Positions 488-5,052 of a stretch of 5,166 bases of DNA are shown piece by piece (within the stretch, counting starts at the first letter, position 1; each line of letters begins with the position of its first letter). The DNA is from a plasmid. Both the position numbers and the translations under genes were made by a program. Where the stretch lies: the NCBI RefSeq assembly GCF_055900595.2, contig NZ_JBVWEU010000008.1; one strand, given 5' to 3'. The notes below the pieces were generated by a model, which worked only from the letters and a program-made list of their open reading frames with translations, searched no databases and was not told the DNA's origin.

Positions 488-1414
488 TCAGAATCCCATA
501 GAAAATCCACGTGACGGTGATTTAACCCGTTCAGGTGCAGTTCGGTTCTGTCTGCTCACTCTGTCTCTCATGTCAAAGCCATGCTCCCGCGCAACATCAT
601 GTTGCAGCCTTCTGACCAGTTCATGTTGCTTAACCGGAGTGTCCAGCCATTCCCTGATGTCATGCCCGACCGTTCGCGCCTGTTCAAGATGGCGGGAATA
701 GTCCGGTTCAGACCGTTTTTGCATGATGTCATGACGCTGGGCATCATCAAGCCGTCCGGCAGCTTCAAAACCCAGATGCACTTCGGGACGTCGTTCAATG
801 CCCTGTTCTTTCAGCGTCCGGCAGTCAATGAAGCCCCTTTCAAAGCCATGCTTTCTCATATGTTCGTTGTGCTTCACCTCCCAGCGTTTTCGCAATTCCC
901 GCAACTGCTCTTTTTGCTGAGTGAGAGTCAGGCTTCCGGAATCCTTTTTCGCACCTCCCCGCTCGGGATACCTGGCGTTATAGCGCCGGAAATACTGTTC
1001 CGGTGTACGTTCAATGCCATCATTCACACGCTGACTCATCATGATATGCGCATGAGGCTGTTCGCCGCCGTCAATGCTCGCTTTCGGATTGTGAATGGCA
1101 AAACTCCAGGCGTGCCGTTCGCCAGCTTCCTGACGTACAAAATCCTGCACCAGTTCAAGGCGCTGTTCCGGTGTCAGTTCACGGGGTAATGCAATTTCAA
1201 GTTCCCTATAGGTCGAACCGTTCGCACGTTCAAACTGGTCAGCCGCCTGCCAGAAATGGGAAGGATTATCCCTGGCCCATTCCGGCATGTTTCCGTGTGC
1301 GGAATATTCCAAATCCTGACGGTCGCGGTATTTCTCTTTGCGCTCGATGTAATCGGCGTGGTTTGCAGCCTGCCCCTTGCCACCAAATTTAACGCTGAGG
1401 TGATAGGTTGCCAC
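488..1414 (-). CDS. mobA: MOBQ-family relaxase MobA (relaxase domain only, 308 aa)
   Basis: 308-aa ORF with GTG start and GAGGG about 8 nt upstream. N-terminus MATYHLSVKF...ADYIERKEKY (catalytic Tyr region), ERANG, EIALPREL and HAHIMMSQRVNDGIER (histidine-triad motif) match my recollection of RSF1010 MobA-type relaxases. No primase-like C-terminal extension. Confidence 0.85.
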   Translation of the reverse strand: MATYHLSVKFGGKGQAANHADYIERKEKYRDRQDLEYSAHGNMPEWARDNPSHFWQAADQFERANGSTYRELEIALPRELTPEQRLELVQDFVRQEAGERHAWSFAIHNPKASIDGGEQPHAHIMMSQRVNDGIERTPEQYFRRYNARYPERGGAKKDSGSLTLTQQKEQLRELRKRWEVKHNEHMRKHGFERGFIDCRTLKEQGIERRPEVHLGFEAAGRLDDAQRHDIMQKRSEPDYSRHLEQARTVGHDIREWLDTPVKQHELVRRLQHDVAREHGFDMRDRVSRQNRTAPERVKSPSRGFSMGF

Positions 1415-2139: not shown

Positions 2140-2197
2140 CTGCTCAAAAAGACGCCAGAAAGGCGCTGTTATCTGATATAGGCTTATTTGGTCTACT
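2140..2197 (-). other. ori: ColE2-type origin of replication (Rep-binding / primer RNA site)
   Basis: Directly 3' of rep and overlapping its stop codon. The rep-sense strand reads TAGACCAAATAAGCCTATATCAGATAACAGCGCCTTTCTGGCGTCTTTTTGAGCAGC, which matches my recollection of the ColE2-P9 minimal origin (AGACCAGATAAGCC..TATCAGATAACAGCGCC..TTTGGCG). Confidence 0.6.
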
Positions 2198-3107
2198 CTA
2201 CGAGACCTCGTTTTTTCAGTTGGTAATACCAGGCGCGACTGATCCCTAATGCCTCCCACGGTTTCAGCGTGCGTGCAGATGTAGCTACTGTGCTGCGCTT
2301 AGACTTAGAACCGCCCTTGCGACCGCGTGCAGCCTGAATTTCTGGCGTGTGCGTATCAGCCACATACTGTGCGAAAGTTTCCGGCGTGAAGTTCCTGTGC
2401 GTGTATTTCGCAATGCTCTTGCCAATAGCCCGACATTCAGCCAGTGAAAGCGGAACGGGAAGCGATGCATTGTACATTTCGACACGCTGGATCACCGCTT
2501 CAAGCCACTGTGAGAACGCTGGCCAGCCCTGACGAATCGCCCTGTAAGCCCATTTGCGCGTCATTTCGAACAGGTGGCAGTTTCGCCCCATCCCGTAATG
2601 TTTATCGATGCTACGACGCTCTGAGGCGCTCAAATCGAGATAATCAGCCAGTTCATCGAGGGTATAGGCTTCCTCGCGCCACTCCATCACCAGCCATTCC
2701 AGGTGGAACGGATTTTTGCAAATCAGGCCGCTGTAGTTCACATCCGCACAAAGTTTCTCACACAGCGAACGTTCAACCGCTGCGGCATATTTCAGCGCCT
2801 TAACCGAGGCATCAGGCGCGGTTCTCACGGCGATGTTGAGTGCGTAGAGCAGGTGAGCGTGTCCGTTCACAGGATTTTTAACGGTGATGTTCGGCGCGGG
2901 AGCGTTCCGGTCGCTCCAGTCAATCGCAGCCCCCTCGCGGTCAACGTCAAAAACCAGCCAGAACTGTGCATGAGGCTGGTTCTGCTGGATATACCGTGCA
3001 AGAAGCGCGCGCCCTTTGCCGGAGATACGAAGGCCGAAAGCGAGATCATCCGTGTGATAGGGACGGTGGGGTAAATTTTCTTCGAAGTATTGAAGCGCGG
3101 CGCTCAT
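2193..3107 (-). CDS. rep: ColE2-type replication initiator Rep (primase-like, 304 aa)
   Basis: 304-aa ORF, ATG at 3107..3105 with AAGGA SD 10 nt upstream. Sequence (MSAALQYFEENLPHRPY..., FDVDREGAAIDWSDRNAPAPNITVKNPVNGHAHLLYAL, GKSIAKYTHR) matches my memory of the ColE2/ColE3 Rep family. Origin-like sequence lies immediately downstream, as in ColE2. Confidence 0.85.
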   Translation of the reverse strand: MSAALQYFEENLPHRPYHTDDLAFGLRISGKGRALLARYIQQNQPHAQFWLVFDVDREGAAIDWSDRNAPAPNITVKNPVNGHAHLLYALNIAVRTAPDASVKALKYAAAVERSLCEKLCADVNYSGLICKNPFHLEWLVMEWREEAYTLDELADYLDLSASERRSIDKHYGMGRNCHLFEMTRKWAYRAIRQGWPAFSQWLEAVIQRVEMYNASLPVPLSLAECRAIGKSIAKYTHRNFTPETFAQYVADTHTPEIQAARGRKGGSKSKRSTVATSARTLKPWEALGISRAWYYQLKKRGLVE

Positions 3108-3124
3108 GTGTTACGATTCCTTCC

Positions 3125-3203
3125 AGGTTATCGACCGACATCGCCCCTGTATTTTCGTGAAAGTCTTGGCGGATAGACACGAATTTCAGGGGCGTTTGTT
3201 TTT
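3125..3203 (+). ncRNA. Putative antisense RNA (RNAI-like) complementary to the rep mRNA leader
   Basis: Bipartite hairpin: outer stem CGCCCCTG (3142-3149) / CAGGGGCG (3187-3194), inner stem TTCGTG (3154-3159) / CACGAA (3178-3183), followed by TTTGTTTTT (3195-3203) on the + strand only. Candidate + promoter TTGAAG (3090-3095), 16-nt spacer, TGT-TACGAT (3109-3117) overlaps the rep start. The 5' end is a guess. Confidence 0.4.
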
Positions 3204-3262
3204 CAGTCGCTTACACTACCCCCAACGACAAAACCTGTCGAGCCTTCCCGCAAATCCGATCC

Positions 3263-3290
3263 ATTTACCATAACTCCCGTTGTACGTACC
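3263..3290 (-). other. cer-like XerC/XerD recombination core (multimer resolution site)
   Basis: Minus strand reads GGTACGTACAA-CGGGAG-TTATGGTAAAT. XerD arm is identical to the ColE1 cer XerD site (TTATGGTAAAT); XerC arm is 10/11 to cer GGTGCGTACAA. Central region is 6 bp. Confidence 0.65.
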
Positions 3291-3405: not shown

Positions 3406-3532
3406 CGAAAGCGATGTGCGATCGGTTTCGTGCGTTCTGAACACCGAACGGCTCAAAACGACAAGTTTTCTCCCCTGGTGCGTGGCGCTCTGACGGGGTT
3501 TCCTGTTTCCAAACTTCACATCTCGCCAGGAC

Positions 3533-3556
3533 AAAAAAAAACCGACCTGGGGTCGG
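3533..3556 (-). terminator. Rho-independent terminator (minus strand)
   Basis: Minus strand: CCGACC-CCA-GGTCGG followed by 9 T (seen on + as A9 then CCGACCTGGGGTCGG). Confidence 0.55.
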
Positions 3557-3691
3557 TGGCAAGAATCAGAGTCTATGGGAAATATTTTAGTTATCGGATG
3601 CTCAATATTCACAAACGCAAAAAATGCCTCAGTGATGCCCTAAAACAACCTTTCCAGAAGGAGTCCGCGCTTTACGATGCACGGAAGAGAT

Positions 3692-3713
3692 AAAAAACCC
3701 CACAAAAGTGGGG
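3692..3713 (-). terminator. Rho-independent terminator (minus strand) at the backbone/AT-rich boundary
   Basis: Minus strand: CCCCAC-TTTT-GTGGGG followed by TTTTTT. Confidence 0.5.
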
Positions 3714-3940
3714 AACCAAGAGAAACAACAATTACAGGTTGTTGGTTGTGTTCGAACAACGATGAAGTAGCTACGCTAAATAATAATTACCGTACAGGCC
3801 CTACATATTCAACACTAAATTTAAGATCCTGACGAAGGATTTATAAATGCACGAAAACACATAGACAGACAAATTCACTAAATTCATACACAAAAACAAG
3901 TGTAGTTTTCTAAGTAAATTAGATTCGACAACCAATTAGT

Positions 3941-3949
3941 TTATCCACA
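3941..3949 (+). promoter_or_regulatory. DnaA box consensus (TTATCCACA)
   Basis: Exact 9-mer TTATCCACA inside the A/C-rich tract. Only one copy seen, so function is unproven. Confidence 0.3.
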
Positions 3950-4097
3950 TCGCATTCCACTCTTGCTACACCAATCACATTTCTTGATATGTAATAGCAG
4001 AAAAAATAAAACCAGACACCAATAGACCAAAAAACAAACATTCAACAAGAAACATTTTGAACAATATCACAAAACTGTCACAACCATCATCAGACTT

Positions 4098-4126
4098 TTG
4101 AAAAAAACTGGTTGCTGTTTTATAAA
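4098..4126 (+). promoter_or_regulatory. Candidate sigma70 promoter (TTGAAA, 17-nt spacer, TATAAA)
   Basis: -35 TTGAAA at 4098-4103, 17-nt spacer, -10 TATAAA at 4121-4126. About 105 nt upstream of the + strand terminator at 4212-4236. Confidence 0.35.
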
Positions 4127-4132
4127 AGCGAC

Positions 4133-4237
4133 TGTAACAACCTCCACTCTATAGTTCCATTAGTTTAAAGTGTCACACAAACTGAGCATCCATTTGTTTT
4201 CCTTACTTTTGCCCCTGTATTCCAAGGGGTTTTTTTA
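4133..4237 (+). ncRNA. Candidate small RNA, module 1 (promoter to terminator, about 105 nt, no ORF)
   Basis: Predicted start about 7 nt after the -10 at 4121-4126. Contains ACACAAAC, then TTTTCCTTAC (4197-4206), then terminator hairpin. No ATG in the interval. Confidence 0.3.
4212..4236 (+). terminator. Rho-independent terminator (plus strand), module 1
   Basis: CCCCT (4212-4216) / AGGGG (4225-4229) stem with 8-nt loop, followed by TTTTTTT (4230-4236). Preceded by TCCTTAC at 4200-4206. Confidence 0.5.
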
Positions 4238-4467
4238 TAACTTAAAGATTAGCACACCACACAAAAACAATAAAAAAAAACGACAAGTTATACAATAAAA
4301 CCAGTACCATCCATACAGCTAATTACATATAAATACTATTAAACCATCTGGACATTAAAAATAAACTCTTATAACATAAAATTAATGCGGTTCCGGTACC
4401 ATATGTCAGGGATAATGTGCAAATGGAGGTATCGGAACTGCATTTCAGTTCATTATTAATTAATGAC

Positions 4468-4494
4468 AAAAAAAAACCTCTGCGAGCGCAGAGG
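4468..4494 (-). terminator. Rho-independent terminator (minus strand), module 3
   Basis: Minus strand: CCTCTGC-GCTC-GCAGAGG followed by 9 T (+ strand A-run 4468-4476). Preceded on the minus strand by TCCTTAC (+ coordinates 4503..4497). Confidence 0.65.
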
Positions 4495-4526
4495 GGGTAA
4501 GGAATGTTCCCGGTCATAATATGTCG
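4468..4526 (-). ncRNA. Candidate small RNA, module 3 (about 60 nt)
   Basis: Runs from the candidate minus-strand promoter (4533-4561) to the terminator at 4468-4494. Contains ATTCCTTACCCCC immediately 5' of the hairpin. Confidence 0.3.
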
Positions 4527-4532
4527 ATAGTG

Positions 4533-4561
4533 TTTATATACATACAGAACAAGAACAACAA
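4533..4561 (-). promoter_or_regulatory. Candidate sigma70 promoter on minus strand (TTGTTG, 17-nt spacer, TATAAA)
   Basis: Minus strand -35 TTGTTG (+ 4561..4556), 17-nt spacer, -10 TATAAA (+ 4538..4533). Directs transcription toward the 4468-4494 terminator. Confidence 0.35.
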
Positions 4562-4713
4562 CCAGCCAACTAATAAATATTTTATTTTTTAGAGCTGAAA
4601 CCTTAAAGCTCACTTCCATTCCATACATTGTTATAAACCTTATGTTGAAAACTGAAAGTAAGTACGGCAGACTTATTAAGTTGCGTGCAGTCTTTTCACG
4701 TTATACAAACAAG

Positions 4714-4770
4714 AACACCTGCGAAGTTATTTCTCCTTACATATCCCCCTATGCCAACGGGGGATTTTTT
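4714..4770 (+). ncRNA. Candidate small RNA, module 2 / possible leader of the 69-aa ORF
   Basis: Weak promoter TTGCGT (4681-4686), 15-nt spacer, TATACA (4702-4707). Transcript would contain TTCTCCTTAC (4731-4740), then ATAT, then the 4743-4770 hairpin and T-run. Start is uncertain. Confidence 0.25.
4743..4770 (+). terminator. Rho-independent terminator (plus strand), module 2
   Basis: ATCCCCC (4743-4749) / GGGGGAT (4759-4765) stem with 9-nt loop, followed by T-run to 4770. Preceded by TCCTTAC at 4734-4740. Confidence 0.6.
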
Positions 4771-4842
4771 CTGGTTCACTAACGCATAAATAATAGTGAC
4801 ACCCTATCATTCACAAACCGTGATAATATAAGGATTATCATC

Positions 4843-5052
4843 ATGGCAAAATTAGGTGAAAACACCCCACATATTATCGATGCTACTGTAGATTTTATGG
4901 CATCAAGCCAGGCATTTCGTGAGTATCTGAAAAAACTTCCCCCTGATAACACAATACCGCCAGCTCTTACTGATGAGCACGTACCGTTATATATACGAAG
5001 GCTGGAATACTATCGTCTGCTTTATCGACCAAAGCAGACAGAATCATATTGA
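4843..5052 (+). CDS. Hypothetical small protein (69 aa), not recognised
   Basis: ATG at 4843 with AAGGA SD (4830-4834) 8 nt upstream; TGA at 5050-5052. Balanced codon usage, hydrophilic, no transmembrane segment. I do not recognise the family ([18 protein letters not shown]...). Competes with a minus-strand frame that is open from the window end to a TAA near 4966. Confidence 0.45.

Follow-up and report, generated by a model that had tools for sequence, protein, structure and literature searches.

What kind of element occupies positions 4468-4770 of the 5166-base plasmid sequence NZ_JBVWEU010000008.1 (assembly GCF_055900595.2; the whole stretch is referred to as the window)? A preliminary description, made from the letters alone, saw there two terminator modules, here called modules 2 and 3, that formed an imperfect inverted pair around outward-pointing candidate promoters, and took this symmetry to suggest an inverted duplication or a small bidirectional transcription unit rather than chance. 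That observation was partly right: the terminators, the shared motif and the promoter-like hexamers are real, and the inverted-duplication framing is wrong. The account favored here, tentatively and at somewhat under an even chance, is that 4468-4770 forms the core of two independent, divergent small non-coding transcription units, leftward unit D and rightward unit E, carried within a portable AT-rich module. The features on which the argument draws are as follows.

4468-4494, minus strand: T2, intrinsic terminator of unit D (module 2), with a stem-loop at 4477-4494 and a U9 tail at 4476-4468, found by terminator scan
4495-4526, minus strand: body of candidate small RNA (sRNA) D, with a predicted start at about 4524-4528 deduced from the position of the -10 hexamer
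4533-4561, minus strand: candidate sigma-70 promoter of unit D, TTGTTG (4561-4556), 17 nt, TATAAA (4538-4533)
4592-4610, between units D and E: invariant 19-mer GAGCTGAAACCTTAAAGCT, which holds a Cra (FruR) consensus at 4594-4607
4659-4735, plus strand: conserved non-coding block E, with candidate promoter TTGCGT (4681-4686) and TATACA (4702-4707) or, at 17-nt spacing, TACAAA
4743-4770, plus strand: T3, intrinsic terminator (module 3), with a stem of about 5-7 bp (4743-4749/4759-4765), an 8-9-nt loop and U6, preceded by TCCTTAC at 4734-4740
4843-5052, plus strand: gene for a 69-aa YibT paralogue downstream of T3, with Shine-Dalgarno TAAGGA at 4830-4835

The two strings that had been called reverse complements do exist, shifted leftward by one base from the positions first given (AGAGGGGGTAAGGA at 4490-4503 and TCTCCTTACATATCCCCC at 4732-4749), but what they share in inverted orientation is confined to an exact 7-nt match, GTAAGGA/TCCTTAC, and a G5/C5 run across a 4-nt gap. 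The pair is absent among the 25 longest inverted repeats of 4100-4850. Local alignment of the reverse complement of module 2 with module 3 yields a score of 15, compared with a dinucleotide-shuffle mean of 13.5 (p = 0.23), and the inverted local similarity between the left and right halves of 4468-4770 is likewise at chance (p = 0.75). The symmetry is thus of the order that chance supplies, and no reverse-complement similarity extends beyond the 7-mer and a generic terminator architecture.

Nor is the paired arrangement retained across related plasmids. The comparison covers five or six diverged lineages at 68-90% identity, individual records of which are given L numbers below. L008 contains 4677-4801 only, while L005 2081-2453 (L005b) and L062 have the neighboring unit C, unit D and the 19-mer and lack unit E, that is, module 3; all three single-armed copies lie among unrelated flanks. 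The comparison gives partial support to the idea of a small bidirectional unit, with arms D and E behaving as separable units and not as a symmetric pair.

The 7-mer can be traced further. Counting both strands of the 5166-bp plasmid, there are exactly three copies of TCCTTAC (0.39 expected), at 4200-4206 on the plus strand, 4497-4503 on the minus strand and 4734-4740 on the plus strand. Every copy resides 0-5 nt 5′ of a CCCC-stem terminator, and the composite TCCTTA-N0-6-CCCC is found at three distinct sites where 0.02 are expected. Terminator-like sites as such number five in the AT-rich region, compared with 1.1 expected in the same terminator scan. The three modules that combine motif and terminator are:

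4200-4238, plus strand: module 1
4503-4468, minus strand: module 2
4734-4770, plus strand: module 3

Direct alignment of modules 1 and 3 over about 45 nt gives p < 0.0005, and the true paralogue of module 3 is therefore module 1, a direct repeat, rather than its inverted neighbor. Across lineages the motif is stable in module 2 only. In module 1 it is present in the window and L028 lineages by virtue of a 7-nt indel and is absent in L003-type lineages, and in module 3 it drifts to TCCTTAT, TCCTTAA or TTCTTAA. Such a pattern seems to fit sequence exchange among terminator modules better than a strictly required element, and the recurrence of TCCTTAC next to a terminator probably reflects paralogy or exchange of this kind, most clearly for modules 1 and 3, instead of inverted duplication.

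Conservation within the region is concentrated in blocks. Identity reaches 90-100% in the conserved elements as opposed to 25-55% between them, at an overall value of about 67%. The blocks comprise T2 together with GGGGGTAAGGAATG (4466-4506), the TATAAA region (4528-4546), the 19-mer (4592-4610), and the segments 4659-4735 and 4765-4801. A six-frame comparison across lineages points to no preferred or conserved frame: similarity is the same in all six and each is interrupted by indels, which means that nothing here codes for protein. NCBIfam and Pfam searches on the local open reading frames (ORFs) returned nothing, and the only long frame in block E contains a stop codon in L005, L007 and L071.

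Unit D is the best-supported element of the region, and its parts are arranged as in base-pairing sRNAs of the Hfq type, with a seed that resembles an anti-Shine-Dalgarno sequence. Its T2 hairpin has a 7-bp stem (5 GC) and a 4-nt loop, and a 59-nt RNA folds at -15.1 kcal/mol (z = -2.9); the hairpin and a tail of U7-9 are kept in every lineage, with loop and stem length varying. The A/T tract at 4468-4476 differs in length from 7 to 9 nt even among near-identical plasmids. The D body holds conserved UUCCUUAC-CCCC (TCCTTAC at 4503-4497) and a small GGRA/UYCC 5′ hairpin, and a conserved core, YUGACYG...AUUCCUUAYCCCCUCUG, is shared by the window, L002, L003, L005, L028 and L071 types. The seed is AUUCCUUACCCCC, and the predicted RNA is about 58 nt long in the window and about 58-64 nt across lineages. 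The features characteristic of Hfq-type sRNAs (non-coding, a length of about 58-64 nt, promoter-like hexamers, U7-9 and the conserved UUCCUUAYCCCC) come together in unit D only.

The candidate promoter of unit D keeps its position across lineages: TATAAA and the TTG of the -35 hexamer are fixed, the spacing is 16-18 nt, and the spacer sequence is variable. At the aligned site L005 has TTGAAA-17-TATAAA, scoring 10.2 bits; the variants TTGAAT-18 and TTGTCC-16 score 7.2 bits each, the value obtained for L003 and L002. In the window, both hexamer sets of the proposed outward promoters are present as first described, but they are weak alone and lie at the level of the AT-rich background: with a crude sigma-70 position-weight matrix the D promoter scores 5.06 bits and the E promoter 3.4 bits, and a consensus promoter scan reported neither.

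Block E is 80-95% identical to lineages that are only about 67% identical overall. Its hexamers are invariant, the following AACAYCTGCGAAGTTATTTCT is essentially invariant too, and the homology of L008 begins at 4677, 4 nt upstream of the E -35 hexamer. A natural 3-nt GTA/ATA indel in the -10 region (4703/4704) yields a perfect TATAAT in L133. T3, which the terminator scan also reports, folds at -11.7 kcal/mol and is intact in the window, L002/L004/L009 and L028 lineages. The 69-aa protein encoded downstream is 72% identical to proteins named YibT by their sources, and its gene is the only accessory protein gene found on the plasmid. Chromosomal yibT adjoins mtlR, and the homology between plasmid and chromosomal DNA starts at the ribosome-binding site. 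Knockout of yibT alters butanol tolerance and membrane fatty-acid composition (PMC4888631).

Between the two units resides the 19-mer, which is invariant in all aligned lineages. Within it, GCTGAAACCTTAAA (4594-4607) is a perfect match to RSTGAAWCSNTHHW, the published 14-bp consensus of Cra (FruR) (PMC5829826). The plasmid has no other match to this consensus (0.06 expected), and among 200 shuffled sequences 11 contain a match. All 67 of 67 homologous copies share the identical 14-mer, and the degenerate L005b copy, ACTGAAACCTTAAA, still fits the consensus. The box lies about 75 bp upstream of the predicted start of D and about 113 bp upstream of that of E, a position that suggests carbon-flux control of one or both units.

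It could be, then, that the region is the promoter-proximal core of units D and E, and that both sit in a portable 1.1-kb AT-rich non-coding module (about 3671-4801) which a cryptic Col156 plasmid carries as cargo. A weak sigma-70 promoter of the form TTGnnn-17-TATAAA would produce the short D RNA, in which the small 5′ hairpin is followed by single-stranded UUCCUUAYCCCC, the anti-Shine-Dalgarno-like seed, and then by the strong terminator and its U-tail; the target of this RNA would be in the host and not on the plasmid. Transcription of unit E would start at about 4714 from the invariant promoter/leader block. In the window lineage it would mostly end at T3, giving an RNA of about 57 nt, with the yibT-like gene served by read-through of T3 or by a separate weak promoter; in lineages without T3, E transcription would run on. 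Through the Cra box, carbon-flux sensing would control one or both units. That the promoters fire, that the transcripts end where predicted, that Cra binds and that either RNA acts as an sRNA are readings of the sequence.

Several observations weigh against such an arrangement. Across the AT-rich stretch of 1.2 kb, between 59 and more than 100 sites score as well as these promoters, and the spacer of the E promoter TTGCGT/TATACA is 15 nt. The consensus fold of block E shows zero compensatory pairs. T3 is dispensable in two lineages; its 3′ arm is deleted in L003, L005, L006, L007 and L071 and shortened in L008 while its flanks are still conserved, and the selected feature of E would therefore be its promoter/leader block rather than its terminator. 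Duplexes of D with the initiation regions of five plasmid genes (rep, mobA, mobC, yibT and orf177) do not go beyond shuffles, nor do those of E, of B or of the C tail. Several other regulator consensuses had been tried by eye before the Cra match emerged, so its statistical support is moderate, and there is no Cra box near chromosomal yibT, even at one mismatch. Finally, all homologues come from E. coli and close relatives, and the conservation probably reflects, in part, recent shared ancestry and IS91-linked spread.

These points give some room to other explanations. The region might serve as passive insulation, the chief competing account, in which T2, T3, T0 and T1 wall off a cargo slot from the rep/cer/mob backbone, the hexamers are ordinary for DNA of 33% GC, and no dedicated RNAs are made. 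The ordinary promoter scores in the window are in keeping with this idea, as are the insertion of a flavin adenine dinucleotide (FAD)-dependent oxidoreductase and ArsR cargo between modules 1 and 2 in related plasmids and the presence of two more minus-strand terminators that shield the rep side (one at 3541-3560, read from the sequence). Insulation is nonetheless doubtful: it leaves unexplained the invariant positions of the -10 and -35 hexamers, the 19-mer and the 77-nt block amid 25-55% identity, as well as the stronger D promoter found at the equivalent position in other lineages, and the orientation of T1 and T3 is wrong for terminating an inserted minus-strand cargo gene. An explanation that overlaps with the divergent-unit account concerns the right arm. 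The Shine-Dalgarno sequence of the yibT-like gene requires a start site upstream of about 4828, and no convincing promoter was found between T3 and the ATG; E and T3 may therefore be the promoter and leader terminator of that gene, with T3 a regulated terminator in a 5′ leader of about 130 nt in which UCCUUAC, acting as an anti-Shine-Dalgarno, pairs with TAAGGA. E, T3 and yibT are co-linear in the window, L002 and L028 lineages, and the leader folds with z = -2.4. Attenuation of this sort is unlikely, however, given that the UCCUUA:UAAGGA pairing amounts to just 6 bp (p = 0.12 for the duplex versus shuffles), that just about 30 nt of leader precede T3, that block E is equally conserved where no yibT follows (L003, L005, L008), and that a -10 hexamer, TATCAT/TATAAT, at 4805-4810 could alone serve yibT.

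The two remaining alternatives fare worse. It is highly improbable that the locus is a cis-antisense or type I toxin-antitoxin system, with RNA D antisense to a plus-strand transcript that runs from the promoter of unit C and specifies a small toxic peptide. That promoter and its hairpin do reside just upstream, the lack of a U-tract behind the T2 hairpin in the plus direction makes read-through into the D gene possible, and one minus-strand ORF includes a hydrophobic stretch; yet indels interrupt every ORF, none is conserved in any frame, and D is conserved where the C promoter has been replaced by cargo (L002-type) or truncated (L071). An inverted duplication, or a symmetric element of the cruciform or protein-bound palindromic type, is scarcely credible. 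The 7-mer and the C-run occupy equivalent positions of two outward-facing terminators, and a global alignment of the halves is slightly above shuffles (p = 0.008), which is probably due to the presence of a terminator at either end. Against this, the interior is asymmetric, the local inverted similarity described above is at chance, the closest relative of module 3 is a direct repeat, and the one-arm copies L008, L005b and L062 refute the idea.

Returning to the divergent units, comparisons can be made with several known systems. CyaR (RyeE) and similar enterobacterial Hfq-dependent sRNAs resemble D in being short, in having a small hairpin that presents or flanks a pyrimidine stretch (...GGAACC..UCCUUgGCC in the CyaR model, GGGAACAUUCCUUACCCC in unit D), and in ending with a terminator rich in GC and a long run of U. 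CyaR is responsive to carbon status, and a Cra consensus lies upstream of D. Unlike CyaR, D is encoded on a plasmid and is shorter by about 30 nt, and no CRP site was recognized. The likeness is one of design, not of homology. In the region there is no Rfam match at the gathering or E <= 1 level, and permissive Rfam scans gave only sub-threshold, non-reproducible matches (CyaR, Ref84, Hrs1). In one of these the CyaR model aligned along its full length with precisely the predicted D gene, yet at 17.6 bits versus a gathering threshold of 47; because this match is also absent from the homologous segments of L005 and L002, membership of D in CyaR_RyeE (RF00112) was rejected.

A precedent for a plasmid sRNA comes from p5217 of enteropathogenic E. 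coli (EPEC) E2348/69, an unrelated small cryptic plasmid of about 5 kb that is mobilizable. RNA interaction by ligation and sequencing (RIL-seq) found there an Hfq-bound unannotated RNA with many host transcript partners (PMC8550237), and such plasmids can therefore carry trans-acting sRNAs. p5217 differs in being ColE1-type (rop, mobCAB) and unrelated in sequence to the Col156 plasmid, and its sRNA is situated at the rop side; no literature linking Col156 with sRNAs was found. As at Cra-controlled E. coli promoters, the 14-mer fits the consensus perfectly and lies upstream of both candidate promoters. Cra activates from upstream positions. The candidate site is unlike known ones in that it is plasmid-borne, precedes non-coding units and has no metabolic gene nearby. 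Lastly, the antisense control of the Rep mRNA leader by RNA I in the ColE2 family likewise employs a small, terminator-ended RNA, and within the same plasmid family; the putative RNA I system here is at 3072-3205 beside rep, 1.3 kb from the target region.

Upstream of the region are two further units:

4098-4238, plus strand: unit B with module 1; promoter TTGAAA-17-TATAAA (4098-4126), conserved body of about 105 nt, TCCTTAC (4200-4206) and terminator T1 (4211-4238)
4349-4444, plus strand: unit C; promoter TGGACA-17-TAACAT (4349-4377) followed by a 17-bp hairpin (4384-4444)

The promoter of unit B, at 9.15 bits, is the best of the region, and conservation starts at the predicted start site at about 4133, which would make unit B a stronger sRNA-gene candidate than either module 2 or module 3. 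The unit C hairpin folds at -27.6 kcal/mol (z = -5.3) on the plus strand and at -18.2 on the minus strand, and its substitutions across lineages keep G-U pairs on the plus strand only, with one compensatory pair. The element at 4384-4444 is probably a structured plus-strand RNA or plus-strand single-stranded DNA. Since the plus strand is the strand nicked at the origin of transfer (oriT), a single-strand initiation signal is possible. The same hairpin was considered as a Xer (cer-like) site and rejected, the real cer-like core being at 3262-3289. Units B and C resemble D and E, have promoters better than theirs, and support a cluster of small transcription units. Conceivably, the AT-rich stretch from about 3671 to 4801 is a portable “sRNA island” of four or five promoter-to-terminator units (A-E) and the true cargo of the plasmid, in which host mRNAs would be targeted, under Cra (carbon-flux) control, by sRNAs with anti-Shine-Dalgarno seeds, namely D and those 3′ ends of B and E that carry TCCTTAC in particular lineages, and the plasmid would gain a selectable phenotype with the YibT paralogue as the sole accessory protein; taken as a whole, this larger picture is improbable.

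The window itself is a complete small plasmid, circularly permuted, of the cryptic Col156 type of about 5.16 kb (ColE2-type Rep, MOBQ). It is matched over its full length, at 99.7-99.9%, by more than 240 PLSDB records of 5.16-5.17 kb, which are typed as Col156 or rep_cluster_2131 with a MOBQ relaxase. Of 5426 complete E. coli genomes, 349 contain the target region, nearly always on a plasmid, which makes this a very common cryptic plasmid of the species; carriers of this plasmid type include CE10 and the sequence type 131 (ST131) strains JJ1886 and JJ1887. The stretch 3700-4850, which houses the target, has 32-38% GC, and neither RefSeq nor PLSDB annotates anything in the AT-rich stretch, 4468-4770 included. 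The backbone consists of:

488-1414, minus strand: mobA, with a downstream ORF that wraps across the window origin
1441-1480: RSF1010-like oriT signature, read from the sequence and outside the target region
1591-1989: mobC-like ORF
about 2161-2197: what we take to be a ColE2-type origin-like sequence
2193-3107, minus strand: rep, ColE2-type

In the target region itself no oriT, ssi or ter was found, with Ter and CRP spacing fits checked by eye only. Elsewhere on the plasmid, a cer-like XerC/XerD core, GGTACGTACAA-CGGGAG-TTATGGTAAAT, lies upstream of rep at 3262-3289 on the minus strand, fitting the consensus used at 21/22 positions; it is presumably the multimer-resolution site reported for ColE2-type plasmids. 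The rep leader (3072-3195, minus strand) gives a weak PK-repBA match of 26.2 bits against a gathering threshold of 45, and a long plus-strand hairpin followed by TTTGTTTTT, at about 3143-3205, resembles the terminator of a ColE2-type antisense RNA I. A perfect DnaA-box sequence, TTATCCACA, occurs at 3941-3949 on the plus strand within the AT-rich module; DnaA is not known to be a requirement of ColE2-type replication. Head-to-tail dimers exist among the assemblies, for example NZ_CP146568.1 (10,328 bp), and CP088695.1 (L014, 4013 bp) is a natural derivative that is devoid of mobA and mobC and keeps rep, the AT-rich module, yibT and the downstream ORF.

The more distant relatives fall into four contexts, one of them being the partial copies described above. 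L002, L004, L009 and L013 are Col156-type plasmids of 82-86% identity with a 2.6-kb cargo, encoding the FAD-dependent oxidoreductase and an ArsR/SmtB regulator, exactly between module 1 and the 4384 hairpin (4295-4378), where it replaces the unit C promoter. L003 and L005-L007 are large IncF plasmids that contain the whole AT-rich module (about 3671-4801) at about 70% identity and are devoid of the Col156 backbone. In L003 and L005-L008 the module has 2-5 matching places per record and adjoins remnants of the insertion sequence (IS) families IS91, IS3 and IS21; L005 also has the sta1 enterotoxin gene nearby. Spread of the module through IS91 one-ended transposition is plausible. A metagenome scan added contigs L028 and L060 at 90% and L071 at 68%, and within its 68-90% range no lineage beyond the enterobacterial plasmid family. 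When genome contigs were scanned with the 19-mer, the matches were limited to one contig from Escherichia, one contaminated scaffold from Streptococcus and two that are due to chance. L010 (NZ_WMZH01000013.1), filed under Streptococcus parasanguinis, is a scaffold of 1247 bp that has 99.5% identity to window 3507-4755 and is almost certainly E. coli plasmid contamination of a Streptococcus assembly.

Plasmids of this type are called cryptic, with only rep, mob and hypothetical genes annotated. What is new here is a set of unannotated intrinsic terminators and a candidate plasmid sRNA gene. Should the units be silent, they would amount to ordinary terminators in AT-rich DNA. If they are expressed, the cargo of these plasmids would consist of regulatory RNA together with a small stress-linked protein paralogue, which would offer a testable reason for plasmid persistence and would add a plasmid-borne, possibly Cra-controlled layer to the post-transcriptional control of the host.

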